From a virus: a stretch of DNA of 10,956 nucleotides. The position numbers and the translations under genes are program-made. Below the pieces are notes generated by a model. The model made no database searches. It saw only the letters and a program-made list of their open reading frames with translations, and had not been told where the DNA came from. Positions 78 to 10,956 of the stretch are shown one piece after another. The stretch's first letter is position 1. Every line of letters starts with the position of its first letter. The stretch is taken from the UHGV virus genome UHGV-0334393. One strand, written 5' to 3'.

Positions 78-320
78 GCTTCGACATCCTTCGCAAATCT
101 TATACAAGTAAGATGGAATAAACCGGGGTCAGAGAGGGGGCTGTTCAAAACCTCGCCAACTCTAGAAATACAATTTAGAGAATTAGGGCGAGCCGTCAAG
201 CATTTGACAGGGGCCAGGGGGCAGGTATGAATCAAAAATTTGAAGCAGTTAACGCTATTGACAGGAATGTGACAGATGTCGCTGATGCCAACGATAGATG
301 ATAGTTATTTATCAGTTAGT

Positions 321-425
321 GTTCGTGGGTGTTCGTCATGGTATGGGTATCTCATTTATTTCTATGATTATAAAGGATAATTTCGTTTTTCTTGTTCGCC
401 CTTGTTCGTCACAGTTCGCCCTTGT
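321..425. repeat. Direct repeats upstream of int: GTTCGT at 321..326 and 331..336, TGTTCGTCA at 330..338 and 403..411, GTTCGCCCTTGT at 394..405 and 414..425. Candidate integrase arm-type or operator sites.
   Basis: Exact repeats read directly from the sequence; the two 12-mers start 20 bp apart. The function is inferred from their position just upstream of the integrase start. Confidence 0.4.
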
Positions 426-481
426 ACGATGCTCGGTGTAGTCAATGGTGTAGTTAATTTTGATGACCGGAAATTCGAAAC

Positions 482-1720
482 ATGAGCAGGGCAATTCATA
501 GACTTAGCGACACTCTTTTACGAAAATTAAGCGGATCACCAACCACAAAAAACACCTTTTTTAATGATGGTGGCAACCTTAGCGTAAGGCATTCAACCAA
601 TGGCCTGTTAACCTGGTATTTCACTTACAGGGCCGGAACAGGCAGGAAGGTAGCCCCTGAACGTCTGAGGCTGGGAAATTATCCAGATTTGAGCCTGAAA
701 GCAGCCAGGGAAAAAGCGTCGCAGTGTCGCGCCTGGCTTGCTGAGGGTAAAAATCCACGCCATGAGCTTAATCACACCGTACAGGAAGCGTTATCACCTG
801 TTACGGTTAAGGAAGCGCTCACTTACTGGCTTGAATCGTACGCGAAGGAAAAGCGCACAGATTACGAATCTCTGAAAAGCCGGATCAATACACACATAAT
901 CAGCCATATTGGTGCTATGCCGCTGGAAAAATGCGAGCTACGCCACTGGCTGACCTGTTTTGATCAGCTTGCTAAGCGTAATCCGGTATCAGCAGGATTT
1001 TTGTTACAGGTATGCAAGCAGGCGCTTAAGTACTGCCGCAAACGACGCTACGCAATTACCAACGTTCTAGATGATATGGTTGTAGGTGATGTTGGGAAAA
1101 AAGCAGAAATAAGCGAGCGCGTACTAACAAACAAGGAGCTTGGGGAATTACTCCGCGCCCTGGATGAAAAAATTTACCCACCGTACTACAGCGCCCTGAT
1201 TCGCCTCCTGATTGTCTTCGGATGTCGTACCACTGAGCTAAGACGCTCTGAGGTCCAGGAATGGGATTTTAAAGAAATGCTCTGGACCGTGCCGAAAGAA
1301 CATAGCAAAACGAAGGTAGCAATATTCAGGCCAATACCGGAAGCGATCTTGCCGTTCGTAACGAAGCTGGTGGAGCAGAACAGGTACACGGGATTATTGC
1401 TCGGAGAACTGAAAGGGCAATCATCCGTATCAGAGTACGGAAGAACGGCACACAGACGTATTAATCAAGCCCCCTGGACGTTGCACGACATCCGGCACAC
1501 GTTTACAACGATGCTGAACGATTTAGGCGTGGATCCTCATGTAGTGGAGCAGCTAACCGCGCACCAGTTGCCAGGAATGCAACGAGTCTATAATCACTCC
1601 CGTTATCTCGATGCAAAACGTGACGCTCTTAATCTATGGGTTGAGCGTCTCGAGCTTCTCCAGAACAATGATGAAAAAATCGTTGTTATGACCCCGAGAA
1701 TTTACTCCCAAAATTCTTGA
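482..1720 (+). CDS. int: Tyrosine site-specific integrase (P4/CP4-57-like family)
   Basis: 412-aa ORF. The C-terminal region has the tyrosine-recombinase pattern (LHDIRHTF, then RVYNHSRY with a candidate catalytic Tyr). The N-terminal region (FNDGGNLSVR, WYFTYR) resembles the integrase arm-binding domain. Position at the island edge next to a chromosomal gene fits. Confidence 0.9.
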   Translation: MSRAIHRLSDTLLRKLSGSPTTKNTFFNDGGNLSVRHSTNGLLTWYFTYRAGTGRKVAPERLRLGNYPDLSLKAAREKASQCRAWLAEGKNPRHELNHTVQEALSPVTVKEALTYWLESYAKEKRTDYESLKSRINTHIISHIGAMPLEKCELRHWLTCFDQLAKRNPVSAGFLLQVCKQALKYCRKRRYAITNVLDDMVVGDVGKKAEISERVLTNKELGELLRALDEKIYPPYYSALIRLLIVFGCRTTELRRSEVQEWDFKEMLWTVPKEHSKTKVAIFRPIPEAILPFVTKLVEQNRYTGLLLGELKGQSSVSEYGRTAHRRINQAPWTLHDIRHTFTTMLNDLGVDPHVVEQLTAHQLPGMQRVYNHSRYLDAKRDALNLWVERLELLQNNDEKIVVMTPRIYSQNS

Positions 1721-1761
1721 CAAATTACGGCTGTTTTTCTTGCGAAAAATGGCCCTCTAAA

Positions 1762-1798
1762 ATAAATCGTCGAATATCGGCAAATATCGACGATTTAT
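1762..1798. promoter_or_regulatory. Inverted repeat ATAAATCGTCGA / TCGACGATTTAT (12-bp arms, 13-bp spacer) between int and the AlpA-like gene; candidate operator
   Basis: Arms are exact reverse complements (1762..1773 and 1787..1798). Not followed by a T-run, so a protein-binding site is more likely than a terminator. Confidence 0.3.
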
Positions 1799-2129
1799 AT
1801 GTGTCAAGTATTGAAAAAATTTGAAATGTCTTCTTCTGAGTTCTTATTCTCTGTTTCTTGATTGTTCCAACACCTGATGGTTTATCTATTTGTTTTTAAT
1901 GAGGTAATTCAGGTGTCATGCCAAATGACGACATTTTTTGTTGCGTCGCTTAAAAACTCGTGACACGATTTTAAACACTAACGAGCTTCTACGAACCTTA
2001 GCGAACAAAGCCTTTAGCATGGTTGTGTTTTTAATTTAAGAGGTGAAAAAGAATCTAAGTAATATCCGATCTCATATATCTACAGCTAAGAGAAAAGTTT
2101 ATATACGTAATTTTTATGTAGGTTTTTGT

Positions 2130-2339
2130 ATGCGTGAAATAAATGAAGATCGCGTAATCCGTGAGGATGAATGTCGTAAGTTAACTGGAGTGTGCCGCAC
2201 TACACGTTACGAACTGGAGAAAAAAGGGCGCTTTCCGTCACGTCTTAATCTGGGCGGTCGTTCTGTAGGGTGGCTGCTGTCCGAGGTTATGGAATGGGTT
2301 AAAAGCAGGGATCGTATTAATTCAGGTAAGGCAGCGTAG
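2130..2339 (+). CDS. alpA: AlpA-family (phage/prophage regulatory protein) DNA-binding transcriptional regulator
   Basis: The segment RKLTGVCRTTRYELEKKGRFPSRLNLGGRSVGWLLSEVMEWV matches the AlpA/Phage_AlpA helix-turn-helix core (LGGRSVGW...E...W). The tracked ORF starts at a GTG at 2043 that overlaps its own Shine-Dalgarno; the in-frame ATG at 2130 gives a typical ~69-aa AlpA size. Start is uncertain. Confidence 0.7.
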   Translation: MREINEDRVIREDECRKLTGVCRTTRYELEKKGRFPSRLNLGGRSVGWLLSEVMEWVKSRDRINSGKAA

Positions 2340-2351
2340 GGGGAACATATG

Positions 2352-2385
2352 ACACATAAAACAAAGGCGACCTGGGGCGGTCGCC
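2352..2385 (-). terminator. Rho-independent terminator for the minus-strand unit (stem GGCGACC / GGTCGCC, loop of 6, then a U-rich tract on the minus strand)
   Basis: On the minus strand the hairpin at 2366..2385 is followed by TTTGTTTTAT. On the plus strand it is not followed by a T-run. It sits between the convergent alpA-like and RHH-like genes. Confidence 0.5.
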
Positions 2386-2449
2386 AATGGGAAAACACTA
2401 AACATAAGCCCGAACATCATAGCGATTTGCTGGCTGGTGGGCAATGCAA

Positions 2450-2623
2450 TCAGTCTGGTTCAGTTCGTTGCCATACCTGCAATGAGCGCGTTTCCCTGTA
2501 CTCTTTAAGGAATTGCTCAAGGGCAAAAGCACATGGCGCGAATCGTTCTGATTCATGCTCTTTCTTTCTGCGTCGTCTTTTTCGTGCAGGTGATGTTTTT
2601 TCGGTTGATTCTTCGTTGGTCAT
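2450..2623 (-). CDS. Small, highly basic hypothetical protein (57 aa) downstream of the RHH-like gene; below the ORF-track length cutoff
   Basis: Manual translation of the minus strand gives MTNEESTEKTSPARKRRRRKKEHESERFAPCAFALEQFLKEYRETRSLQVWQRTEPD. It lies between the RHH-like gene and the minus-strand terminator. Ribosome-binding site is weak; coding status is uncertain. Confidence 0.25.
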   Translation of the reverse strand: MTNEESTEKTSPARKRRRRKKEHESERFAPCAFALEQFLKEYRETRSLQVWQRTEPD

Positions 2624-2680
2624 TGTGTGCGCCTGTAAAGCAATGCGCCGTAGTACCTCACACCACGGCGCTGATAGTGA

Positions 2681-2878
2681 TTATTCTGATTCTTTGGCCT
2701 TCCGGCGCTGTTCATATTTTAATTTGCGTCCACAGGCATCTAAGACCCATGCGGAAAAATTAGCACTAGGATTAGTTAATTTTTCTTGTTCAACGCTGGC
2801 ATCAATCCCATCTATAAGCTCATGTGGGAATCGAATATTTTTCTTTGCTGATTTGTTGTTTGTGTTACCGCTAGACAT
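2681..2878 (-). CDS. Ribbon-helix-helix (CopG/Arc/MetJ-like) DNA-binding protein; candidate repressor
   Basis: 65 aa. The pattern KNIRFPHELIDGIDASVEQ...NPSANFSAWVLDACG fits a beta-strand, helix, turn, helix RHH layout. GAGGTG Shine-Dalgarno about 6 nt upstream of the ATG on the minus strand. Its upstream region carries palindromic operators. Confidence 0.6.
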   Translation of the reverse strand: MSSGNTNNKSAKKNIRFPHELIDGIDASVEQEKLTNPSANFSAWVLDACGRKLKYEQRRKAKESE

Positions 2879-2907
2879 TGATGCACCTCACTTAAATGGA
2901 CTTTATG

Positions 2908-2986
2908 GGCGCACACAATACAGCAAAAAAAATGAGATGTTAAGTATTGACATGTGCGCACACATGATTTTAATCTGTGCGCACAG
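2908..2986. promoter_or_regulatory. Divergent promoter/operator region: perfect 10-bp palindrome TGTGCGCACA twice (2953..2962, 2976..2985) flanking a -10-like TTTAAT, with TTGACA at 2947..2952; related half-sites GGGCGCACACAAT (2908..2920) and ATTGTGTGCGCC (2621..2632)
   Basis: Palindromes and hexamers read directly from the sequence. TTGACA, a 16-bp spacer and TTTAAT point rightward toward the 3077.. operon; the operators overlap the spacer and the +1 region. Confidence 0.55.
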
Positions 2987-3076
2987 TTTGAGTTTTGTCA
3001 TTCAAATTAAGCAACGCCCCGCAGTGCTCGCAACACATGCAGGGCGTCTAACCAACAACGTAAACTAGGAGCCGTT

Positions 3077-3274
3077 ATGGTTGCCGTAAATCATATACCA
3101 CACCTTGTACACACACAAACGGCCTTTGTGTGGCGTTTTCTGGCCCTGAGTGCCGGAGAATCTCAAATCATCCACGTAACCGCCTGGACGGAACGCGAAG
3201 CGCGTAGCCGTTGCCCGTCCGGTTGTGTTGCTGTATTCGCCGCCCGTATTCGTCAGGGGGTGAGTCATGCATAA
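3077..3274 (+). CDS. Hypothetical protein (65 aa), first gene of the operon that ends in the primase
   Basis: AGGAG Shine-Dalgarno 5 nt upstream of the ATG; overlaps the next ORF by 8 nt (ATGCATAA). No recognisable homology. Confidence 0.55.
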   Translation: MVAVNHIPHLVHTQTAFVWRFLALSAGESQIIHVTAWTEREARSRCPSGCVAVFAARIRQGVSHA

Positions 3275-3494
3275 AATACCCTTTGATGTTCTTATTCATT
3301 CTGAAAACGCATTAATTAAAGCGCGCGAAATGAATGTGTTGTTAATTAAATTAATTGAAGCAACGGAAGCTGGAGAAGAATCTTCGTCATTAATGCTTGC
3401 CGCCGTTCAGACATTACTATCGCCTGTAATTGATGAACTGGATAAGGCGATGGCAATTCACGAAAATAATAACGCGCCCCACACCGGAGAATAA
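3267..3494 (+). CDS. Hypothetical protein (75 aa), predicted helical
   Basis: Start overlaps the stop of the upstream ORF (translational coupling); GGGGGTGAG Shine-Dalgarno. No recognisable homology. Confidence 0.55.
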   Translation: MHKIPFDVLIHSENALIKAREMNVLLIKLIEATEAGEESSSLMLAAVQTLLSPVIDELDKAMAIHENNNAPHTGE

Positions 3495-3499
3495 AAATA

Positions 3500-3799
3500 A
3501 TGAAACTTAAATATTCTGGCTTAACTGCCAGTGGCAACACTCACCCTAAATTTACGCGCGGTGATATTTACCGCGACCAGTACGGCGGCACGGTAATGAT
3601 TAAGGGCGTGGCGGGACGGTGCGTAACTTACCGCCGTGAAGGTTACGAATATGATTGCGTGATGCCTGTTTATCAGTTCCGGCGTGATTTTTCTCTGGTA
3701 CAGACCGCGCCGCATAACGTGCCCACCAGCAACGCCAGAGCACGGGCAAACATCCAGAAGCTGAAAACAATGATTAACGGATTCAGGGGTAAAAAATGA
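3500..3799 (+). CDS. Hypothetical protein (99 aa)
   Basis: GGAGA Shine-Dalgarno 9 nt upstream; its stop overlaps the primase start (ATGA). No recognisable homology. Confidence 0.6.
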   Translation: MKLKYSGLTASGNTHPKFTRGDIYRDQYGGTVMIKGVAGRCVTYRREGYEYDCVMPVYQFRRDFSLVQTAPHNVPTSNARARANIQKLKTMINGFRGKK

Positions 3800-5928
3800 A
3801 ACTGGCACCGAACGTAAAACAGCAGTCACGCGGCATAAAACACAAAGAAACAGAAGTCATTATTTTTGCGGGTAGTGATGCCTGGTCACACGCAAAACAA
3901 TGGCAGGAACATGACGCGCGTATGGCCGGAGATAATGAGCCTCCTGTGTGGCTTGGGGAGCAGCAGTTATCCGAACTGGATAAGCTGCAAATTGTGCCGG
4001 AAGGCAGAAAATCAGTACGCATATTCAGGGCCGGACATCTTGAGCCAGTAATGATCAAGGCGATTGGTCAGAAACTGGCGGCGGCAGGCGTACAGGATGC
4101 AAATTTTTACCCTGAGGGAATGCACGTTCAGAAGGTGGAGAACTGGCGCGAATATCTGGCCCGTGAGCGGCAGAATCTTTCTGATGGTCTGGTTATTGAG
4201 CTTCCGGTAAAGAAAAAAGATACCGGAAGTCATAGCGATGACGAATTAAAGCCACGCGTTGAAAGTCGCGCCGATGGTGTTTTCTGGGTAACGCCCAAAG
4301 TGGATAAGCAGTCAGGCGAAATTATCCGGCCTGAGACGTGGTTATGTTCTCCGCTTGAACTACTGGGAACGGGGACGATCGGTAAAGAGCATTACCGCGT
4401 GATGCGCTGGAAAAAAACCGCAAACCATGAAGTCATCACAATGGCGATCCCGTGTGGTGGTATCGGCGACCGTGACGGCTGGCGGTTACTTAAAGATCAC
4501 GGGCTGAACGTGACAACCAACGGCAAATACAGGGCAATCCTGGCGGACTGGATGCAGTTAAGCGGAAGCCATGAGGAATGGCAGTTAAGCACAACAACGG
4601 GCTGGCATTTTGGCGCGTACATCATGCCGGACGGTTCGATCATTGGTGATTCTGAAAAACCGATCCTGTTTACCGGAAAAAGCGCCGCGATTAACGGTTA
4701 TTCCGTGGCGGGTACGGCGGAGGGCTGGCGCGAGAGTGTGGCGCGGCTGGCTGGCGGTAATGCCTCAATGATGCTGGGTGTGGCAACGTCACTGGCAGCG
4801 CCTTTAATTGGCCTTGTGGGTGCTGACGGCTTCGGGGTGCATCTTTTCGAACAGTCATCGGCAGGTAAGACCACCACGCAGAACATCGCATCAAGTTTAT
4901 GGGGAGAGCCGGACGCGCAGCGGCTGACCTGGTACGGCACGGCGTTAGGTATTGCCAATGAGGCCGAGGCCCATAATGACGGGCTTTTACCACTGGATGA
5001 GATAGGCCAGGCCGGAAATGCGCGGGAAGTGTCAACGTCTGCTTATACGCTGTTTAACGGTTCAGGGAAATTGCAGGGGGCGAAGGATGGCGGCAACAGG
5101 GAGATCAAACACTGGCGAACGGTGGCAATCAGCACCGGAGAAATGGACGTTGAGACATTCCTCAAAAGTGAGGGGATAAAAGTTAAGGCGGGGCAGCTTG
5201 TCCGACTGCTTAACGTTCCGATGGAAAAAGCCACGAAATTTCACGAATACAGCAACGGTAAGGAACATGCTGACGCGTTAAAGGATGCCTGGACAGCAAA
5301 TCACGGGGCGGCGGGTCGTGAGTGGGTTAAATGGCTGGCAGGCCACCAGCAGGAGGCAAAGGACACGGTAAGGGAATGCCGCGAACGGTGGCGCAACCTG
5401 ATACCGGAGAGTTACGGCGAGCAGGTCCACCGCGTGGGTGAACGTTTCGCCATACTGGAGGCCGCGCTTGTGCTTTCCGGTCATGTAACTGGCTGGGTCG
5501 TGCAGGAATGCCGCGACGCGATACAGCATAACTTTAATGCCTGGGTGAAGGAGTTCGGCACGGGTAACAGGGAATTTAAACAGATGGTTGAACAGGCTGA
5601 GGCGTTTTTGTCGTCGTTTGGGTTTAGCCGCTACCTTCCGTACCCCAATACAGATGAGCGTGATTTACCGATTAAAGAGCTTGCCGGATACAGAAAAGGG
5701 AGCATTCGCAACGAAGATGACGAGATGCGCTATTACACGTTCCCGCACGTGTTTGAGAGTGAGATAGCGAAGGGATTTAATCCGGCGCATTTTGCGCGTG
5801 CCCTGGATGCTGCCGGAATGCTGGAGAAGGGAAGCGATCGCCGATACAAAAAAAAGGCGCTGGGCAAGATTGGGGGTAAGCAGCATGTTTTTTACGTGCT
5901 GATGTTCCAGCCTGATGATGAAGATTAA
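3796..5928 (+). CDS. Replication initiator, primase/helicase type (DUF927/D5-like; SF3-like ATPase domain)
   Basis: 710 aa. Walker A SSAGKTT and Walker B LLPLDEIG motifs in the central region. N-terminal region is consistent with a toprim/primase-like domain. An iteron origin lies immediately downstream, as in PICI pri-rep modules. Confidence 0.9.
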   Translation: MKLAPNVKQQSRGIKHKETEVIIFAGSDAWSHAKQWQEHDARMAGDNEPPVWLGEQQLSELDKLQIVPEGRKSVRIFRAGHLEPVMIKAIGQKLAAAGVQDANFYPEGMHVQKVENWREYLARERQNLSDGLVIELPVKKKDTGSHSDDELKPRVESRADGVFWVTPKVDKQSGEIIRPETWLCSPLELLGTGTIGKEHYRVMRWKKTANHEVITMAIPCGGIGDRDGWRLLKDHGLNVTTNGKYRAILADWMQLSGSHEEWQLSTTTGWHFGAYIMPDGSIIGDSEKPILFTGKSAAINGYSVAGTAEGWRESVARLAGGNASMMLGVATSLAAPLIGLVGADGFGVHLFEQSSAGKTTTQNIASSLWGEPDAQRLTWYGTALGIANEAEAHNDGLLPLDEIGQAGNAREVSTSAYTLFNGSGKLQGAKDGGNREIKHWRTVAISTGEMDVETFLKSEGIKVKAGQLVRLLNVPMEKATKFHEYSNGKEHADALKDAWTANHGAAGREWVKWLAGHQQEAKDTVRECRERWRNLIPESYGEQVHRVGERFAILEAALVLSGHVTGWVVQECRDAIQHNFNAWVKEFGTGNREFKQMVEQAEAFLSSFGFSRYLPYPNTDERDLPIKELAGYRKGSIRNEDDEMRYYTFPHVFESEIAKGFNPAHFARALDAAGMLEKGSDRRYKKKALGKIGGKQHVFYVLMFQPDDED

Positions 5929-5950
5929 TCCCCTGTGTGAGGAAAAAAAT

Positions 5951-6290
5951 TGCGGGTTATGCGGGTTATCCTGTGTATAAGTGTATTAAGTGCATGAATA
6001 TAAAGGAAACCAATAACCCGCACGTAACCCGCAAAAGGGCATTTATAACCCGCAAAAGCACGATTATAACCCGCAGGCGAATAACTGAAGTAACACCGGA
6101 CAGTCATGCGTAACCCGCAGAAAAAAAACCGTTTGCGGGTTATTTTGAGCGTTTTGCGGGTTACGTGGTGAGCAAATAATAAACAGGGTGTTTTGCAAAA
6201 TACTGATATAAAAGGATAAAAAATGGTTAGCACGCTAAGATAACCCAATAACCCGCATAACCCGCACATGTTTCTATATATATATAAATT
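5951..6290. repeat. Replication origin: iterons TAACCCGCA / TGCGGGTTA in both orientations (copies at 5951..5968, 6013..6075, 6111..6119, 6134..6164, 6241..6266) followed by a (TA)n unwinding-element-like tract (6275..6290)
   Basis: At least twelve copies of the 9-mer or close variants counted directly, with irregular spacing and an AT-rich tract. Located just downstream of the replication protein. Confidence 0.75.
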
Positions 6291-6300
6291 GAGGTGGCAA

Positions 6301-6552
6301 ATGACCAGAACACGCAGAGACAGAACAGAGCCAAAATATAAAGCGTTAGACATGACTGAGCACACCTTAAAGGTGGCAATCAGAACGATAGACCGCCACA
6401 CGCGGGAAGGATACGCGAAGGAACATCCCGACCTGATAAGCGCATTCATGACCACAGCGGCGGCAAACTTTGCCACGCTGACAGAACGGGAGATTGCCGA
6501 AGCGGAACAGGTAACAACCATCAACGTTAAAACCGGAGAGGTGGAATCATGA
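6301..6552 (+). CDS. Hypothetical protein (83 aa), translationally coupled to ssb
   Basis: GAGGTGG Shine-Dalgarno 5 nt upstream of the ATG at 6301. The tracked ORF start at 6268 lies inside the iterons and has no Shine-Dalgarno. Its stop overlaps the ssb start (ATGA). Confidence 0.6.
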   Translation: MTRTRRDRTEPKYKALDMTEHTLKVAIRTIDRHTREGYAKEHPDLISAFMTTAAANFATLTEREIAEAEQVTTINVKTGEVES

Positions 6553-6959
6553 CAGCACAGATAGCCGCTTACGGGCGGCTGGTGGACGACCCGCAGGTAA
6601 AACAGACCAGCAAGGGCACACCGATGACGCTGGCGCGTATGGCGGTCCCCCTTCCGTGCAGCCAGGCAGATGACGGAACGGCTACGTTATGGCTGTCCGT
6701 CATCGCATTTGGCAAGCAGGCCGACTTCCTGGCTAAACATCAAAAAGGCGACGTTGCCAGCGTATCTGGCGTGATGCAGATAAGCCAGTGGACCGGACAG
6801 AACGGGGAAACGCGGCAGGGTTATCAGGTTATTGCAGACAGCGTAATCAGTGCCCGTGCGGCACGTCCTGGCGGGAACAGACGCAAAACCACAGGCGCAC
6901 AGGGTAATCAGCCACCAGCGGGAGACGATGACCCCTACGGTGATGATATTCCGTTCTGA
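6549..6959 (+). CDS. ssb: Single-stranded DNA-binding protein (short SSB with OB fold and acidic C-terminal tip)
   Basis: 136 aa. Collinear similarity to E. coli SSB (GRLVDDPQVKQT..., W..VIAFGKQADFLAKHQKGD..., ...W.DQ.G..R) and the hallmark C-terminal DDIPF tail after a Gly/Pro/Gln-rich linker. Confidence 0.85.
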   Translation: MTAQIAAYGRLVDDPQVKQTSKGTPMTLARMAVPLPCSQADDGTATLWLSVIAFGKQADFLAKHQKGDVASVSGVMQISQWTGQNGETRQGYQVIADSVISARAARPGGNRRKTTGAQGNQPPAGDDDPYGDDIPF

Positions 6960-6967
6960 ACGCACAG

Positions 6968-6989
6968 GCCGGAGAAAATCCGGCTTTTT
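6968..6989 (+). terminator. Rho-independent terminator (stem GCCGGA / TCCGGC, loop GAAAA, then T5)
   Basis: Hairpin plus T-run immediately after the ssb stop codon. Confidence 0.7.
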
Positions 6990-6995
6990 GTACCC

Positions 6996-7038
6996 AAAAA
7001 AAGCCCGATAAGTACAGGAGGAAGCTTATCGGGCTTTT
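6996..7038. terminator. Bidirectional rho-independent terminator (10-bp stem GCCCGATAAG / CTTATCGGGC flanked by A7 and T4)
   Basis: Perfect 10-bp stem with a 12-nt loop; A-run on the 5' side and T-run on the 3' side. Confidence 0.6.
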
Positions 7039-7112
7039 GCTTACGAGGTTAACAGCATGGTGACTACTGTTGCTGTAAATCATTTCATAATTTGCAACGC
7101 AACTCAATTTTA

Positions 7113-7161
7113 TTGCGCAAAATGCAATCATGATTATAATCATGACTGGATGAACATCCAG
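7113..7161 (+). promoter_or_regulatory. Promoter P1 for the capsid operon: -35 TTGCGC (7113..7118), 16-bp spacer, -10 TATAAT (7135..7140) inside a perfect 18-bp palindrome TCATGATTATAATCATGA (7128..7145), followed by the inverted repeat CTGGATG-AA-CATCCAG (7146..7161)
   Basis: Hexamers and palindromes read directly; positioned about 55 bp upstream of the first capsid-operon start codon. The palindrome over the -10 suggests operator control. Confidence 0.55.
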
Positions 7162-7196
7162 TTATGATTTTTTAAGTCAAAGAGGAATTTCTGACT

Positions 7197-7403
7197 ATGG
7201 CAGAAGAGAAAAAAGGTGGTGTTTCGGTGTACATAAGCCCCGAAATCGTGGAGGTGCTCAAGCAGCGCCACAAAAAAAACTATGAGGCTGGCGTAGCGGC
7301 TGGACTGGATCCGCTGATGACGCCGGAGCCGTCGATAGGTTCACTTGTGCGCTCTTATTTACTTGCGGCGCTTGGGATGCATAAAAATTATGGGGGTGAA
7401 TAA
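7197..7403 (+). CDS. Hypothetical protein (68 aa), first gene of the capsid operon
   Basis: AGAGGA Shine-Dalgarno; stop overlaps the downstream start (TAATG). No recognisable homology. Confidence 0.6.
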   Translation: MAEEKKGGVSVYISPEIVEVLKQRHKKNYEAGVAAGLDPLMTPEPSIGSLVRSYLLAALGMHKNYGGE

Positions 7404-8458
7404 TGACAGGCAAAGCAACGGCACTTAACACTAACCAGCTTTTCATGTACCTGAATCGCGGGGATATTGCGGATTTTAAATTCAGCCCTCTGTTTACCAC
7501 GCTGTTTTTCCCGAACGTGGCGACATTCAGCACGCAAAACATCATGCTGGATACCCTGGACATTGAAGAAGTCACCATGTCGGCGTTTTGTTCGCCTATG
7601 GTTGGCAGCCAGGTACAGCGCGATAAAGGGTACGAAACCAGCACAATTAAACCTGGCTACATGAAGCCAAAGCACGAAATCGATCCAACGAAAACCATCA
7701 TGCGCATGGCTGGAGAAGATCCGGCACAGCTTAACGACCCTACCTACCGACGTATGCGCCTTATTACTGGCAACATGCGCCGCCAGATAAACGCCATTAA
7801 AGCGCGCGTGGAATGGCTGGCGGTGAATGCGATAACGACCGGAAAAAACATCATTGAGGGCGAAGGCATAGAACGCTATGAAATCGACTGGAAAATACCG
7901 GAAAACTGCATCATAGAGCAGGCCAAGGGTAAAAAATGGTCCGAGCATGATAAAGATATTTACGATCCAATCTATGACATCGAACTATACGCAGATCAGG
8001 CAGGTTGCCCCGCCAACGTCATGATTATGGGCGCTGAGGTATGGCGCACGTTACGCAGCTTTAAAAAATTCCGCGAACTGTACGATCTTTCCCGTGGTTC
8101 AGAATCCGCCGCAGAACTGGCCTGTAAAAACCTGGGTGAAGTAGTGAGCTTTAAAGGCTATCTGGGCGATATTGCCCTTATCGTCTATTCCGGCAAATAC
8201 ACTGACAGCGACGGTACCGAAAAATATTTCCTTGAGCCTGATTTGCTGGTCCTGGGTAACACCAACAACAAAGGGCTGGTGGCCTATGGTGCGATTATGG
8301 ATCAGGAAGCTGTAAGAACAGGCGCAACGCAAAACATGTACTACCCGAAAAACTGGATTGAGGACGGCGATCCGGCGATTGAGTACGTGCAGACGCACAG
8401 CGCACCGCAGCCGGTACCGGCAGACATTCGCAAATTTGTTACCGTCAAAATTGGTTAA
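7403..8458 (+). CDS. Major capsid protein, lambda gpE family
   Basis: 351 aa, collinear with lambda gpE (341 aa) from memory: FKFSPLFTTLFFPN vs FKFDPLFLRLFFRE; PGYMKPKHEIDP vs PGYVKPKHEVNP; YPKNWIEDGDPAIEYVQTHSAP vs YPKNWVTTGDPAREFTMIQSAP. Good Shine-Dalgarno (GGGGGTGA). Confidence 0.9.
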   Translation: MTGKATALNTNQLFMYLNRGDIADFKFSPLFTTLFFPNVATFSTQNIMLDTLDIEEVTMSAFCSPMVGSQVQRDKGYETSTIKPGYMKPKHEIDPTKTIMRMAGEDPAQLNDPTYRRMRLITGNMRRQINAIKARVEWLAVNAITTGKNIIEGEGIERYEIDWKIPENCIIEQAKGKKWSEHDKDIYDPIYDIELYADQAGCPANVMIMGAEVWRTLRSFKKFRELYDLSRGSESAAELACKNLGEVVSFKGYLGDIALIVYSGKYTDSDGTEKYFLEPDLLVLGNTNNKGLVAYGAIMDQEAVRTGATQNMYYPKNWIEDGDPAIEYVQTHSAPQPVPADIRKFVTVKIG

Positions 8459-8469
8459 CTGGGGATTCT

Positions 8470-8805
8470 ATGAACACTCCATACATTGAGTTATTTGCAG
8501 GCAGTCAGCAGGTATCAACGACGCTGGTACATTTTGCCGCTGATGCTGGCTTTATTCAGGAATTTACCCCGCTGATGCTGTCAGACAATGGCGAGTTTAA
8601 GCCGTGGGATGGTCAGGAATCTGGCAAGGCTGTTTATCTGACTTCGTACCCCGTGGACACGTCGACGCAGAAATCAGCACAGTGTTACAAGACGGGGATA
8701 TTTAATATCGCCGCCGTAAACTGGCCTGAGAGCGCCGACACTGACGCGAAAAAATGCGCCGCCTTTGCGGGTTCTGGCGTATCCGTTCAGCCGCTGGCGC
8801 GATAA
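8470..8805 (+). CDS. Head decoration protein, lambda gpD family
   Basis: 111 aa versus lambda gpD at 110 aa. Shared motifs TPLMLSDNGEFKPWDG vs TPLMLDTSSRKLVAWDG and KKCAAFAGSGVSVQ vs KKRTAFAGTAISIV. Immediately downstream of the gpE-like gene. Confidence 0.85.
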   Translation: MNTPYIELFAGSQQVSTTLVHFAADAGFIQEFTPLMLSDNGEFKPWDGQESGKAVYLTSYPVDTSTQKSAQCYKTGIFNIAAVNWPESADTDAKKCAAFAGSGVSVQPLAR

Positions 8806-8817
8806 GCAGGGGAAACG

Positions 8818-9231
8818 ATGGCAACGAATGAAAGCATCATGGCGCTACCGCTGGCGAGTAAATTTAAAGCAGAAGCGCGGGCAATGGCTGACAGAGGTTT
8901 ATCAACCTACGAGGCCGTATATCAACTCAACAAACTGGAAGAGCAGGACAAGCCGCGCGCTGATGCGATTATGGCGCTTCATGAACATAACGACTATCAG
9001 CCGCTGTTACGTGCAATGGCAAACGTGCCATGTATTAGCGTCGATAATGCTCGTGAAATCCTGAACATGACCATAGAGCAGGAGCGCCCAAAGGTTGCGC
9101 CGGAGCTTACCGCAGCCTTTGAAAACTTTATGGACATGCACAGCCCGAAAGCCGTATCACCCGGCATGGCATACGACGGCAGAAACCAGGGCGATGAAGG
9201 CGACGTCGATCGCATACTGAAAACCATCTGA
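8818..9231 (+). CDS. Hypothetical protein (137 aa), last gene of the capsid operon
   Basis: AGGGGAA Shine-Dalgarno; followed directly by a terminator. No convincing similarity to lambda FI, W or Nu3 by eye. Confidence 0.7.
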   Translation: MATNESIMALPLASKFKAEARAMADRGLSTYEAVYQLNKLEEQDKPRADAIMALHEHNDYQPLLRAMANVPCISVDNAREILNMTIEQERPKVAPELTAAFENFMDMHSPKAVSPGMAYDGRNQGDEGDVDRILKTI

Positions 9232-9237
9232 CATAAG

Positions 9238-9260
9238 GCCGGAGAAATCCGGCTTTTTTT
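9238..9260 (+). terminator. Rho-independent terminator (stem GCCGGA / TCCGGC, loop GAAA, T7); near-identical copy of the hairpin at 6968..6989
   Basis: Hairpin plus T7 run 7 nt after the stop of the 137-aa ORF. Confidence 0.75.
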
Positions 9261-9330
9261 ACGGGTCCTTTCCGGCATATGGACCCGTTACGGGGCGGCG
9301 ACCTCGCGCGTTTTCGCTATTTATGAGCCT
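9261..9330 (+). other. cos site 1 (plus orientation): lambda-like cosQ (9261..9292), cosN 12-nt cohesive-end sequence GGGCGGCGACCT (9293..9304), and the start of cosB (CGCGCGTTTTCGCTATTTATGA), diverging after about 9328
   Basis: ACGGGTCCTTTCCGG...GTTACG|GGGCGGCGACCT|CGCG.GTTTTCGCTATTTATGA matches the lambda right-end/left-end junction as recalled. Downstream sequence up to the terS start differs from lambda cosB. Confidence 0.8.
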
Positions 9331-9437
9331 TTTCAGGGGGGTGGTGGTGGTTTTGTTGTTTGCTCTATCTTTATGAATGAAAAGGGAAAGATGCAAACAA
9401 TACACCAACCTGAAGCAGTAATTAAGTTGGTGTATTA

Positions 9438-9980
9438 ATGAAATCGCACCTGATGAACAAAAAAAACATGGCGAAAAGCTGCCGTGTAAGTGCGACAGCG
9501 TTCGACAAGTGGGGAGTGACTCCCGTTGAACGTAAAGGCCGTGAGGCGTTTTATGATGTTGCCAGCGTGATAGACAATAGGGTTAACAATGCAATTAGCC
9601 AGCTTACAAACGACAAAGGCGATATTGATGATGATGAACTCTTACGAGTCAGGATCAGATTACTGACAGCACAGGCGGAGGCGCAGGAACTTAAAAACGA
9701 GCGCGATCGCGGTGACGTGATTGATACTGAGTTTTGCCTGTACGCGCTTTCAAAGCTGGCGAGTCAGATTTCATCAATCATGGACAGCCTCCCGCTTACT
9801 ATGCAAAGGAGCTTCCCACAGATTACCCCCGCCATGCTGGACAGGCTTAAAAGGGAAGTGGTTAAAGCCTGTAATGCCAGTGCCAGAGTTGCCGACAACC
9901 TCCCACAGATACTGGCTGATTACTTGAAAGAAACAACCGGAAACGTACCGGAAAAGTTGCTACAGAAGAAAGGCAAGTAA
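9438..9980 (+). CDS. Terminase small subunit, lambda Nu1 family (island-encoded TerS)
   Basis: 180 aa versus Nu1 at 181 aa. Strong central similarity: LLTAQAEAQELKNERDRGDVIDTEFCLYALSKLASQISSIMDSLPLTMQRSFPQI vs Nu1 LTRAQADAQELKNARDSAEVVETAFCTFVLSRIAGEIASILDGLPLSVQRRFPEL. The N-terminal HTH region is also alignable (NKK..., YD.A.VI). Lies directly downstream of cos 1, as in lambda. Confidence 0.85.
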   Translation: MKSHLMNKKNMAKSCRVSATAFDKWGVTPVERKGREAFYDVASVIDNRVNNAISQLTNDKGDIDDDELLRVRIRLLTAQAEAQELKNERDRGDVIDTEFCLYALSKLASQISSIMDSLPLTMQRSFPQITPAMLDRLKREVVKACNASARVADNLPQILADYLKETTGNVPEKLLQKKGK

Positions 9981-10006
9981 CAGAAGCGCAATTATTGAAC
10001 AAAAAT

Positions 10007-10202
10007 GAGAAAGGATCTGATAATGGCATTTTCTGGCTAAAATGCCTCGTGTCAGATCCTTTCTTTTTTTAATATTTTCATTGTTAAACAGTCTGTTACA
10101 GAGAAGAAGAACGGATCTGACTTTTGCCGGAAAATTTTCATAAACAGATAAAAACCGCGAGGTCGCCGCCCCGTAACGGGCCATAATTCCAGGAAGGACC
10201 CG
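10007..10202 (-). other. cos site 2 (minus orientation): cosQ-like (10172..10202), cosN (complement of 10160..10171), and a canonical lambdoid cosB with three R-site-like repeats (AGAAAGGATCTGA 10008..10020, TCAGATCCTTTCT 10052..10064, AGAACGGATCTGA 10108..10120) and an AT-rich IHF-like segment
   Basis: The reverse complement reads GGGCGGCGACCTCGCGGTTTTTATCTGTTTATGAAAATTTTCCGG...CCGTTCTTCTTC..., near-collinear with the recalled lambda left end through cosB. The middle repeat is inverted relative to the outer two. Confidence 0.8.
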
Positions 10203-10235
10203 ACGACACCAGACTATCAGAACGATGGGGGCACA

Positions 10236-10517
10236 ATGACAGAAGCCGAAATACTGGGATTAATCCGCCGCGTTGCCGGAATCAGCCAGCAGGTTGACGA
10301 ACAGGCCACGCAGCCGGACAGCGTGACCGCTGAAAATTATGCGCGTGTTGTTGCGGAGGTGATGCGCCGTGATGGTATAGAACTTAATGGCGTGGATATG
10401 CGCAACATACGAACCAGAGTTCTTGAGTTGCTGGCCTACCGTCGCCGTGTGGAGATGTATCGGGAGAAGGAGAAAATAACGTACCACTGGAAGAAGCCGG
10501 AGCGGTTGCGGCGGTAA
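10236..10517 (+). CDS. Hypothetical protein (93 aa)
   Basis: GGGGG-type Shine-Dalgarno 6 nt upstream of the ATG; plausible amino-acid composition; no recognisable homology. Confidence 0.5.
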   Translation: MTEAEILGLIRRVAGISQQVDEQATQPDSVTAENYARVVAEVMRRDGIELNGVDMRNIRTRVLELLAYRRRVEMYREKEKITYHWKKPERLRR

Positions 10518-10719
10518 CTGGTTGATATTCCCGACGGACCAAAAATGGGTGGCTACATCCCTCGCTTCTGAGGACTGTTAACAAGCTGCCTGAAAGACAG
10601 TCACAAACTACGAAATTTTCGCAGTTTAATTAATGATCAGCTTAATCGCTAACCCGCTGATATTTTCGGAAACCTCAATTTGAGGAAGTCGGCGCGGTAA
10701 CTCGCTGAACTTTAAGCAA

Positions 10720-10768
10720 AGCGCAAAATTGCGCTTGCTGAATAATCATTATGATTACGCAGATGATT
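10720..10768 (+). promoter_or_regulatory. P1-like regulatory region: inverted repeat AGCGCAA-AA-TTGCGCT (10720..10735), inverted repeat TAATCAT-T-ATGATTA (10743..10757), and a further ATGATTA (10762..10768)
   Basis: Shares the GCGCAAAAT(T)GC and ATGATTA/TAATCAT motifs with P1 at 7113..7145. Sits just upstream of a Shine-Dalgarno (AAGGA) and an ATG at 10774. Confidence 0.4.
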
Positions 10769-10810
10769 AAGGAATGACCGAAGGCGGAAATTCGCCTGTG
10801 GTTAATGGGG

Positions 10811-10923
10811 GAGTTGCAGATCTGCAACTCGACCATGAAATTACGGAAACTACCCGTAGTTTGGGTAGTAAGAGCAACACCCAGATTTTGGGGCTTACTC
10901 GTGATACCCAAATTTGGGGTATC
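10811..10923. repeat. Palindrome cluster: perfect 20-bp palindrome GAGTTGCAGATCTGCAACTC (10811..10830) followed by three related dyads of the form ACCC-N6/7-GGGT (10849..10870, 10878..10897, 10903..10923) spaced about 27 bp apart
   Basis: Symmetry checked by manual reverse-complementing. These overlap the tracked ORFs 10774..10956 (+) and 10675..10935 (-), whose coding status is therefore doubtful. Confidence 0.5.
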
Positions 10924-10956
10924 GGCGGCAACCATAACGACTTTCGTTACGGTTGA

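Follow-up and report, generated by a model that had tools for sequence, protein, structure and literature searches.

The DNA analysed here, a stretch of 10,956 nucleotides from the virus genome UHGV-0334393 (hereafter the window), was annotated from a six-frame listing of open reading frames (ORFs) and from Pfam, PHROG and NCBIfam scans. Its genes form a nearly unidirectional set on the + strand, in which all ORFs of at least 60 aa could be assigned a place: an integrase gene, alpA, regulators, a replication gene with an iteron origin, a gene for a single-strand DNA-binding protein (SSB), homologues of phage capsid and head decoration proteins, and a small terminase gene (terS) enclosed by two cos sites follow one another from left to right. 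An earlier note on this DNA had listed the same components in the same order and had taken them for a phage-inducible chromosomal island (PICI)-like satellite aimed at lambdoid helper phages, and this view was borne out by the published attachment core, the host genes bounding the element, the synteny with the island EcCICFT073 and the lack of portal, large terminase (TerL), tail and lysis genes. Its term "primase" proved only loosely right, since the replication gene encodes an initiator-helicase of the DUF927/Cch-like kind and a primase domain was not detected in the 710-aa product by the Pfam and NCBIfam scans. According to the best explanation of the data, the window very probably holds about 95% of a classical Gram-negative PICI of the EcCICFT073/EcCIIHE3034 family, the life cycle of which would follow that of EcCICFT073 by homology. 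The architecture is of an already known kind and ordinary for E. coli PICIs, with some less well documented details in the packaging cassette.

The left boundary lies within the window. Its first 77 bases (1–77, − strand) are the 5′ end of the host gene cspD, as judged from the RefSeq annotation of the best relative (locus L001), which aligns from window base 1, and the small host gene yljB follows at 227–301 (+; 8227–8301 in the L001 annotation). The last codons of yljB overlap the 11-nt sequence ATGATAGTTAT (298–308, +), which has no other exact match in the window and equals the published attachment core of the PICIs inserted between cspD and clpS, where it is listed for EcCIIHE3034 and EcCI18098 (Fillol-Salom 2018 supplementary table, PMC6092414). 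Megablast of the window against 5,426 complete E. coli genomes revealed five near-full-length relatives. In the best of them, CEA601S (L001), the element has cspD/yljB on one side and clpS on the other, all of them ordinary host genes, and a second copy of ATGATAGTTAT (attR) is present at 19479–19489, 11,192 bp downstream of the first, 597 bp past the position equivalent to window base 10956 and about 90 bp upstream of clpS. Thus, both direct repeats for which the earlier note had recommended a search were located, attL in the window and attR in the relative. The island proper begins at attL (298–308) and not at position 78, where the stretch described in that note starts, and it extends past the end of the window to a total of approximately 11.2 kb. 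The site of insertion is the 3′ end of yljB, where integration is catalysed by the island's own tyrosine integrase. In each of four relatives the element is bordered by host genes, and in RM10466 a terS cassette 100% identical to that of the window, with the same right-hand body and another integrase, resides inside tqsA, likewise flanked by host genes.

Genes for portal, protease, TerL, tail or lysis functions were found neither in the window, where all ORFs were searched with Pfam and PHROG, nor in the DNA adjoining the element in its relatives. This agrees with the earlier remark that portal, protease and large terminase were lacking, and the view that the segment continues into a larger lambdoid prophage was rejected, as no portal, tail or lysis genes follow in the relatives. 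The AlpA regulator gene is located downstream of int and has the same orientation as most genes, an arrangement by which Gram-negative PICIs are recognized. SatelliteFinder defines the PICI core as integrase, regulator, primase-replicase, capsid-morphogenesis gene and small terminase (PMC10085698), and elements having all five components, as the window does, constitute its "Type A" (375 elements, 97% from E. coli; PMC10085698). A major capsid gene occurs in 21 of the 29 reference Gram-negative PICIs (PMC10111431), some newly identified PICIs carry terS homologues (PMC6092414), and EcCICFT073 contains the capsid and decoration homologues c1499 and c1500 together with two functional cos sites (PMC6092414). 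The terS cassette of the window matched 794 of the 5,426 complete E. coli genomes (~15%), and scanning IMG/VR with the capsid protein recovered the same compact architecture in 80 loci, while a scan of one-genome-per-species contigs with this protein gave no relative. Considering the five Type A components, the published precedents and the 794 genomes sharing the terS cassette, the combination is that of a canonical enterobacterial PICI, a textbook architecture present in a large share of sequenced E. coli strains, and the suggestion of an intermediate or distinct satellite strategy had to be given up. The recommended comparison of gene content also placed the element among the PICIs, and neither with the capsid-forming PICIs (cf-PICIs) nor with the P4-like satellites.

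EcCICFT073 is syntenic with the window gene for gene from int to the last ORF, with approximately 91% nucleotide identity across SSB, the capsid module and both cosQ–cosN segments, and in both islands two convergent cos sites flank a gene of packaging specificity. It differs from the window in its location between roxA and phoQ, in the integrase gene (79% identical), in the allele of the replication gene (Pri-Rep), in the presence of extra small ORFs and perC, in both cosB regions and in having rppA (144 aa) in the place of terS. Helper-dependent induction, packaging, high-frequency transfer and interference have been shown experimentally for this island only (PMC6092414, PMC6739421): it is induced by helper phages in an alpA-dependent manner and has functional int and pri-ori regions (PMC6092414), and its Rpp packaging mechanism has been described (PMC6739421). 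The second reference island, EcCIIHE3034, which is the same as the islands of UM146 and PMV-1 according to the tables of Fillol-Salom 2018, shares the cspD–clpS site and ATGATAGTTAT with the window. Its UM146 copy has the same gene order (SSB, 68-aa ORF, capsid, decoration, 137-aa ORF, cos1, terS, cos2, 93-aa ORF), about 90% nucleotide identity over 70% of the window and a cos1 cosB that is identical to that of the window over 130 nt. The differences concern Pri-Rep, which is represented by another allele in UM146 ("DNA primase family"), and the cosB of cos2, which is of the 21 type in UM146 and of the CAGATCC type in the window.

Exact copies of the lambda cohesive-end 12-mer GGGCGGCGACCT are located at 9293–9304 (+) and 10160–10171 (−), compared with 0.04 copies expected by chance. 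Each copy lies within a 76-nt inverted repeat, and the two sites, cos1 and cos2, are convergent. The first one (cos1, 9260–9437, +) comprises a cosQ-like GGGTCCT (9263–9269), cosN (9293–9304) and a cosB; it follows lambda through cosQ, cosN and ~30 bp further and then diverges. Since this cosB gave no match to 50,697 phage records in a sensitive blastn search, it is referred to as private. It includes the motifs GGTGGTGGTGG at bp 50–60 from cosN (window 9342–9352) and TTGTTGTTT at bp 61–69, the latter resembling a motif at bp 52–60 of phage N15, where GTTGTTGTTT is found at bp 51–60 and the R3 site has been assigned to bp 48–65 (PMC9026076). Past bp ~40, cos1 could not be aligned with the cos1 of EcCICFT073, thus its cosB was not classed as Rpp-type. 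It is worth mentioning that GGTGGTGGTGG is the reverse complement of CCACCACCACC, which occupies bp 56–66 of the Rpp-type cos1 of EcCICFT073 (L004 about 42595–42605) and there overlaps bp 55–63, a segment identical among four PICI cos sites and proposed as the Rpp contact (PMC9026076).

The second site (cos2, 10008–10202, −) is inverted relative to cos1, points back to the 3′ end of terS and consists of a cosQ-like sequence (10195–10201), cosN (10160–10171) and a phage-type cosB. The latter contains three R boxes with the sequence CAGATCCNTTCT (R3, 10108–10119; R2, 10053–10064, in opposite orientation; R1, 10008–10019), for which 0.01 copies would be expected by chance. Their distances from cosN (bp 53–64, 108–119 and 153–164) correspond to those of the annotated R3, R2 and R1 sites of phage 21 (bp 50–65, 107–122 and 150–165). 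Over 137 nt this cosB shares 71.5% identity with the sequence that precedes nu1 in phage SerU-LTIIb, and it matches 95 of the 127 aligned bases in the cosB of an intact 21-like prophage of ETEC1738. The corresponding sites of the two reference islands are related to other phages: the cos2 of UM146 (L005 11200–11470) has a phage-21-type cosB (94/126 matches), and that of EcCICFT073 (L004 43085–43350) has the cosB of a lambdoid prophage that CFT073 itself harbours (102/128 matches). The cos2 of the window can be described as a lambda/21-type cosQ–cosN joined to the cosB of another phage group.

The gene between the two sites, terS (9438–9980, +), encodes a full-length small terminase of the Nu1 family with 180 aa (Pfam 2e-23; phrog_57 3e-53 over residues 1–174). 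Residues 5–166 of the protein show 46% identity to N15 gp1, and in an alignment that also included phage 21 gp1 the protein could be followed to the C-terminal ends of lambda Nu1 and N15 gp1. Its C-terminal 110 aa are 50% identical to the TerS of a CFT073 lambdoid prophage, with the N-terminal DNA-binding part unaligned. The slot of this gene, flanked by the same two cos sites, is taken by rppA in EcCICFT073; the terS product shows no similarity to RppA (BLASTP E 1.3). Searching PDB with TerS and with the products of the 137-aa and 93-aa ORFs gave chance-level matches only, linking none of them to the DNA-binding domain of lambda Nu1 or to RppC, which we take to be represented there by 6HLK/6HN7, and no Rpp protein (139–154 aa, homologous to RppA, RppB or RppC) was found among the candidate ORFs of the window by this search. 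Rpps are 30–40 residues shorter than TerS and have been proposed to lack the TerL-binding end (Murialdo and Feiss, PMC9026076), from which these authors argued that the helper TerS is still needed in their presence. Since the island TerS keeps the C-terminal end that Rpps are proposed to lack, the simplest inference is that it would recruit the helper TerL itself. The N15-like DNA-binding end of this protein may fit the N15-like motif TTGTTGTTT in cos1, which we regard as a lead only. The proposed pairing of a satellite TerS with the helper TerL has a counterpart in the Staphylococcus aureus pathogenicity islands (SaPIs), for example, in SaPIbov1, which has TerS together with Ppi (PMC6092414, PMC10530653). 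However, the SaPI and island TerS proteins belong to unrelated sequence families, and SaPIs of the SaPIbov1 type use headful pac packaging and the separate inhibitor Ppi, in contrast to the window, where the cos sites are of lambda type and no Ppi homologue was seen.

To survey related islands, the 80 IMG/VR loci, in which the capsid proteins are at least 93% identical, were classified by the positions of cosN, the types of cosB and the intervening gene. The class of the window, terS with a CAGATCC-type cos2, was represented by 13 loci, and terS with a 21-type cos2 by 12. Islands with rppA had a CATGTCCGG-type cos2 in 10 loci and another type of cos2 in eight; a further eight loci had no gene between the cos sites, and cos2 was missing in five terS islands. 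Without exception, the two-cos terS islands (25/25) had the private kind of cosB at cos1 and one of phage type at cos2. Compared with EcCICFT073, the window is conserved on either side of the two cosN sites and differs throughout the interval that they enclose. The eight loci without an inter-cos gene fell into two orientations (five and three loci), the 536-bp cosN-to-cosN segment being 99.3–99.6% identical in reverse orientation between gene-less loci (L074 8955–9490 vs. L079 9800–10335, and also L081/L082 and L080/L084); co-linear flanks were confirmed for L074 and L079, the sole pair checked together with the flanks. The varying inter-cos content and the reverse-orientation copies with co-linear flanks indicate, at the sequence level, that the stretch enclosed by the inverted cos sites undergoes exchange in nature and, at least in its gene-less form, also inversion. 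Inversion could result from cutting at both inverted cosN sites, since the two ends of the resulting fragment would be alike and could be rejoined either way, or alternatively from recombination between the inverted repeats. No description of such exchange or inversion was found in the searchable literature, the coverage of which is incomplete. In the five terS islands without cos2 (L018, L049, L065, L069 and L075), the 93-aa ORF directly follows terS.

Upstream of cos1, four adjacent head-related genes are located. The first is a 68-aa ORF (7197–7403, +; phrog_3255, 8.5e-46), the stop codon of which overlaps the start of the capsid gene (7403–8458, +). The latter encodes a homologue of the major capsid proteins of the lambda gpE/phage 21 gp7 family (PF03864, 3e-50), which is of full length and 46% identical over its whole length to the major capsid protein of a lambdoid prophage; no capsid protein among the phage records was more than 46% identical to it. 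The third gene (8470–8805, +) codes for a homologue of the lambda gpD/21 SHP head decoration proteins (PF02924, 3e-17), 43% identical to a prophage decoration protein, and the fourth (8818–9231, +) for a 137-aa protein, the homologue of c1501. Residues 49–131 of this protein align with residues 115–192 of phage 21 gp6 (BLASTP, 36% over 83 aa, E 1e-10), the scaffold that is nested in the gp5 protease gene, and the match spans one annotated "Tri" repeat and most of the C-terminal tail. The protein also matched the equivalent region of a prophage S49 peptidase and the head-maturation-protease family of PHROG (phrog_53, 1.5e-9), in the latter case at the C-terminal end of the profile, while no similarity to lambda Nu3 was found. 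Between islands, the lengths of the capsid-module genes are identical and the ratios of non-synonymous to synonymous substitution rates (dN/dS) are low (0.11–0.14 for the capsid gene, 0.14–0.40 for the decoration gene, where the top value is based on just seven differences, and 0.18–0.37 for the scaffold-like ORF), by which we conclude that these genes are maintained as proteins under purifying selection. The three homologues (capsid, decoration and scaffold tail) presumably influence how a cognate helper assembles its heads, although our confidence in any specific mechanism is low.

Taken together with the published work on EcCICFT073, these data allow a life cycle to be proposed. By homology, a lambdoid helper would switch on alpA, and AlpA, the inducer of the island cycle in EcCICFT073 (PMC6092414), would drive excision and expression of the rightward operon. 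The DUF927-type Pri-Rep would then fire the adjacent iteron origin, with the island SSB assisting, and concatemers would be formed, which the helper TerL is expected to cut at the lambda-type cosN and to fill into helper-made heads joined to helper tails. In this scheme, a complete small terminase would replace the short Rpp adaptor of EcCICFT073: the N15-like N-terminal part of TerS is predicted to bind the private cosB of cos1, and the C-terminal part, which is like that of the lambda, N15 and CFT073 prophage TerS proteins, to recruit the helper TerL directly. With its three R boxes, the cosB of cos2 would in turn also open the island to packaging by a helper terminase that is unmodified and matches it in specificity. 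On this basis, we tentatively consider the inter-cos segment as a possible exchangeable and sometimes invertible cassette of packaging specificity. The island could then enter capsids by either of two routes, which would make it an uncharacterised variant of cos piracy. By the first route, the private cos1 may be read by the island's complete TerS, which would make the helper TerS unnecessary, unlike in the Rpp mechanism. By the second, the island could be packaged by an unmodified helper terminase because the cosB of cos2 would copy that of a particular lambdoid phage group (CAGATCC type in the window, 21 type in UM146 and the type of a resident prophage in CFT073). The conserved trio of capsid, decoration and scaffold-tail homologues may also belong to this variant.

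Several observations weigh against the best explanation given above. Induction, replication, packaging and transfer rest wholly on homology to EcCICFT073, the packaging protein of which (Rpp) is not homologous to the island TerS. The motif TTGTTGTTT is short and statistically ordinary in the window, and it lies ~9 bp farther from cosN than its counterpart in N15; as the window shows no enrichment of the 10-mer GTTGTTGTTT either, the proposed TerS site depends on position and comparison only. The ETEC1738 prophage having the same type of cosB as cos2 has a different cosN (L011 3980–4225), and one helper may not serve both cos sites, since the source of the cos2 cosB type is the 21-like phages, in which the C-terminus of TerS is unlike that of the island protein. 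The window ends ~600 bp short of the right end of the island and does not include attR. Furthermore, EcCIIHE3034 gave almost no transductants in a published assay (PMC6092414 Table 1), and in UM146 the primase gene (L005 5298–7045) and terS (10668–11209) are both annotated as frameshifted, which together suggest that weak or decayed islands occur in this subgroup; the two frameshifts may be related to the very low transfer of EcCIIHE3034.

Two other readings of the packaging and head genes were weighed. It is possible, though less likely, that TerS acts in the manner of an Rpp, forming mixed oligomers with the helper TerS through the shared central domain, by which the phage cos would be blocked and the complex redirected to cos1, in which case the helper TerS would be required. 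The exact coincidence of its gene with the rppA slot of EcCICFT073 suits this reading, helper interference is a general trait of PICIs (PMC6092414), and co-assembly with the helper TerS is plausible in view of the 50% identity of the central and C-terminal 110 residues to a lambdoid prophage TerS. However, the protein resembles neither RppA nor, as far as the PDB search goes, RppC, and it reaches the C-terminal ends of the lambda and N15 TerS proteins, from which the shorter Rpps fall 30–40 residues short (PMC9026076). It seems rather improbable that the capsid module builds or reshapes island-sized heads with the portal and protease of the natural helper, by which the element would be a partial capsid-forming island standing between classical PICIs and cf-PICIs. 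The constancy of four adjacent head-related genes (dN/dS 0.11–0.37), the full-length capsid lineage with at most 46% identity to any phage capsid protein and the similarity of the adjoining ORF to the phage 21 scaffold in its C-terminal part are consistent with such a role. Satellites encoding a homologue of the helper major capsid protein are known from SaPIbov5 (Ccm) and PmCI172 (PMC6092414, PMC6893505): Ccm redirects the size and changes the shape of the capsid, and PmCI172 makes small heads (PMC6092414, PMC6893505). In contrast, no change in size and no transfer phenotype were found for the E. coli homologue: with lambda as the helper, the packaged EcCICFT073 DNA was of phage size, deletion of c1499 or c1500 left transfer and interference unchanged, and the island with the c1501::tetA insertion still transferred (PMC6092414). 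The lack of portal, protease, connector and TerL genes also argues against this role.

The identity of the element as a PICI faces weaker competitors. A decayed remnant or internal part of a lambdoid prophage would account for the lambdoid homologues of capsid, decoration, TerS and cos, but this is very unlikely, because the relatives have host genes directly at the flanks and the att repeat 11.2 kb apart, the order E–D–scaffold tail–cos–terS is unlike that of lambda and phage 21, the compact architecture recurs in hundreds of genomes and in the 80 IMG/VR loci, the genes are under purifying selection, and the replication and regulation modules are of the PICI type and not lambdoid. A P4-like satellite is scarcely credible. 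The window has int, a regulator of the AlpA family, a replication protein and cos in common with such elements, which thereby also obtain a partial PICI score (PMC10085698), but Pfam and PHROG scans of all ORFs gave no homologue of Sid, Psu, Delta or Epsilon and no alpha primase, the cos sites are of lambda type, and the two kinds of element differ in genome structure and in gene content (PMC6092414 discussion). The cf-PICIs, of the EcCIEDL933 type, have a similar left half (int, alpA, rep) and also possess capsid and terS genes, but they encode portal, maturation protease, head–tail connectors, HNH and TerL and build their own capsids. This identity was rejected for the window, where portal, protease, connector, HNH and TerL were absent from all ORFs by Pfam and PHROG and the only match was that of 83 residues to the scaffold C-terminus.

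Within the classical PICI that the window very probably represents, four points deserve to be retained: a complete TerS at the position of rpp, the convergent pair of a private and a mimic cos site, the invertible and exchangeable segment between them and the homologue of a scaffold tail. They are details of a known system, proposed from sequence comparison, and of this system only the Rpp variant has a worked-out packaging mechanism in the searchable literature. If TerS captures the helper TerL directly and cos2 mimics specific types of helper cosB, this would help to explain the helper range of these islands and the reshuffling of packaging specificity between them. It might also help to explain why deletion of cos2 in EcCICFT073 raised transfer by lambda and phage 80 (PMC6092414).

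The replication module begins with a Pri-Rep initiator/helicase gene (3796–5928, +), the 710-aa product of which represents a DUF927 allele (PF06048, 1e-48) and has a weak match to the replicative helicase Cch1 of NCBIfam. The gene is a mosaic: its first ~140 codons (3796–4217) show 96% nucleotide identity to EcCICFT073, while 4218–5928 belong to a different allele, that with DUF927. A mosaic joint was also observed at the integrase side, as RM10466 (L010 937–2166) combines the same island body with another integrase. Directly 3′ of the replication gene lies the origin (5944–6273) with direct and inverted arrays of 11 iterons; the 11 exact copies of TAACCCGCA at 5951–6266 compare with 0.04 expected by chance. 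It is followed by a conserved ORF upstream of ssb (6268–6552, +; phrog_1231, 8e-53), of which a 252-nt version is annotated in the relatives, and by ssb itself (6549–6959, +; PF00436). The acidic tip of E. coli SSB binds partner proteins, and the end of the island protein, …GDDIPF (window 6935–6959), suggests that it can plug into the host replication proteins. A perC-family gene is situated between ssb and the 68-aa ORF in EcCICFT073 and CEA601S; it is absent from the window (6960–7196), where the alignment skips from window 6959/6963 to L001 14950/15229.

Between the integrase and replication genes several small ORFs are located, beginning with the AlpA-family regulator (2130–2339, +; PF05930, 1.7e-16). 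Two genes of the opposite strand follow, a small divergent ORF annotated in the relatives (2450–2623, −; phrog_21027, 6.5e-14) and a YlcI/YnfO (DUF3950) small protein, which is a putative regulator (2681–2878, −; PF13132; phrog_949, 1e-27). A 239-aa ORF of the + strand (2349–3068) was rejected as spurious because it overlaps these two conserved genes and has no annotated + strand counterpart in L001 or EcCICFT073. Further rightward are genes for an Icd-like protein (3077–3274, +; NF033153 of NCBIfam, 6e-18), a conserved 75-aa ORF (3267–3494, +; phrog_2196) and a DUF4222 protein (3500–3799, +; PF13973, 2e-23). Scans for promoter and terminator consensus sequences gave chance-level results in the window, and no RNA family of Rfam was present there. 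At the right end, a conserved 93-aa ORF downstream of cos2 (10236–10517, +; phrog_1561, 3e-57) is shared with EcCICFT073, UM146 and CEA601S, and a 60-aa ORF reaches the window edge (10774–10956, +); the latter is annotated as hypothetical in L001 (18724–18882) and had no family match in Pfam or PHROG. At the left end, the integrase gene (482–1720, +) encodes a tyrosine recombinase with an arm-type DNA-binding domain (PF00589, 2e-18; PF13356, Arm-DNA-bind_3, 8e-17). TGTTCG(N) repeats and the tandem motif GGTGTAGT(C/T)AATGGTGTAGTTAAT are located beside attL at window 320–460 and also just inside attR at L001 19340–19410, and these motifs are probably the arm-type binding sites of the integrase.

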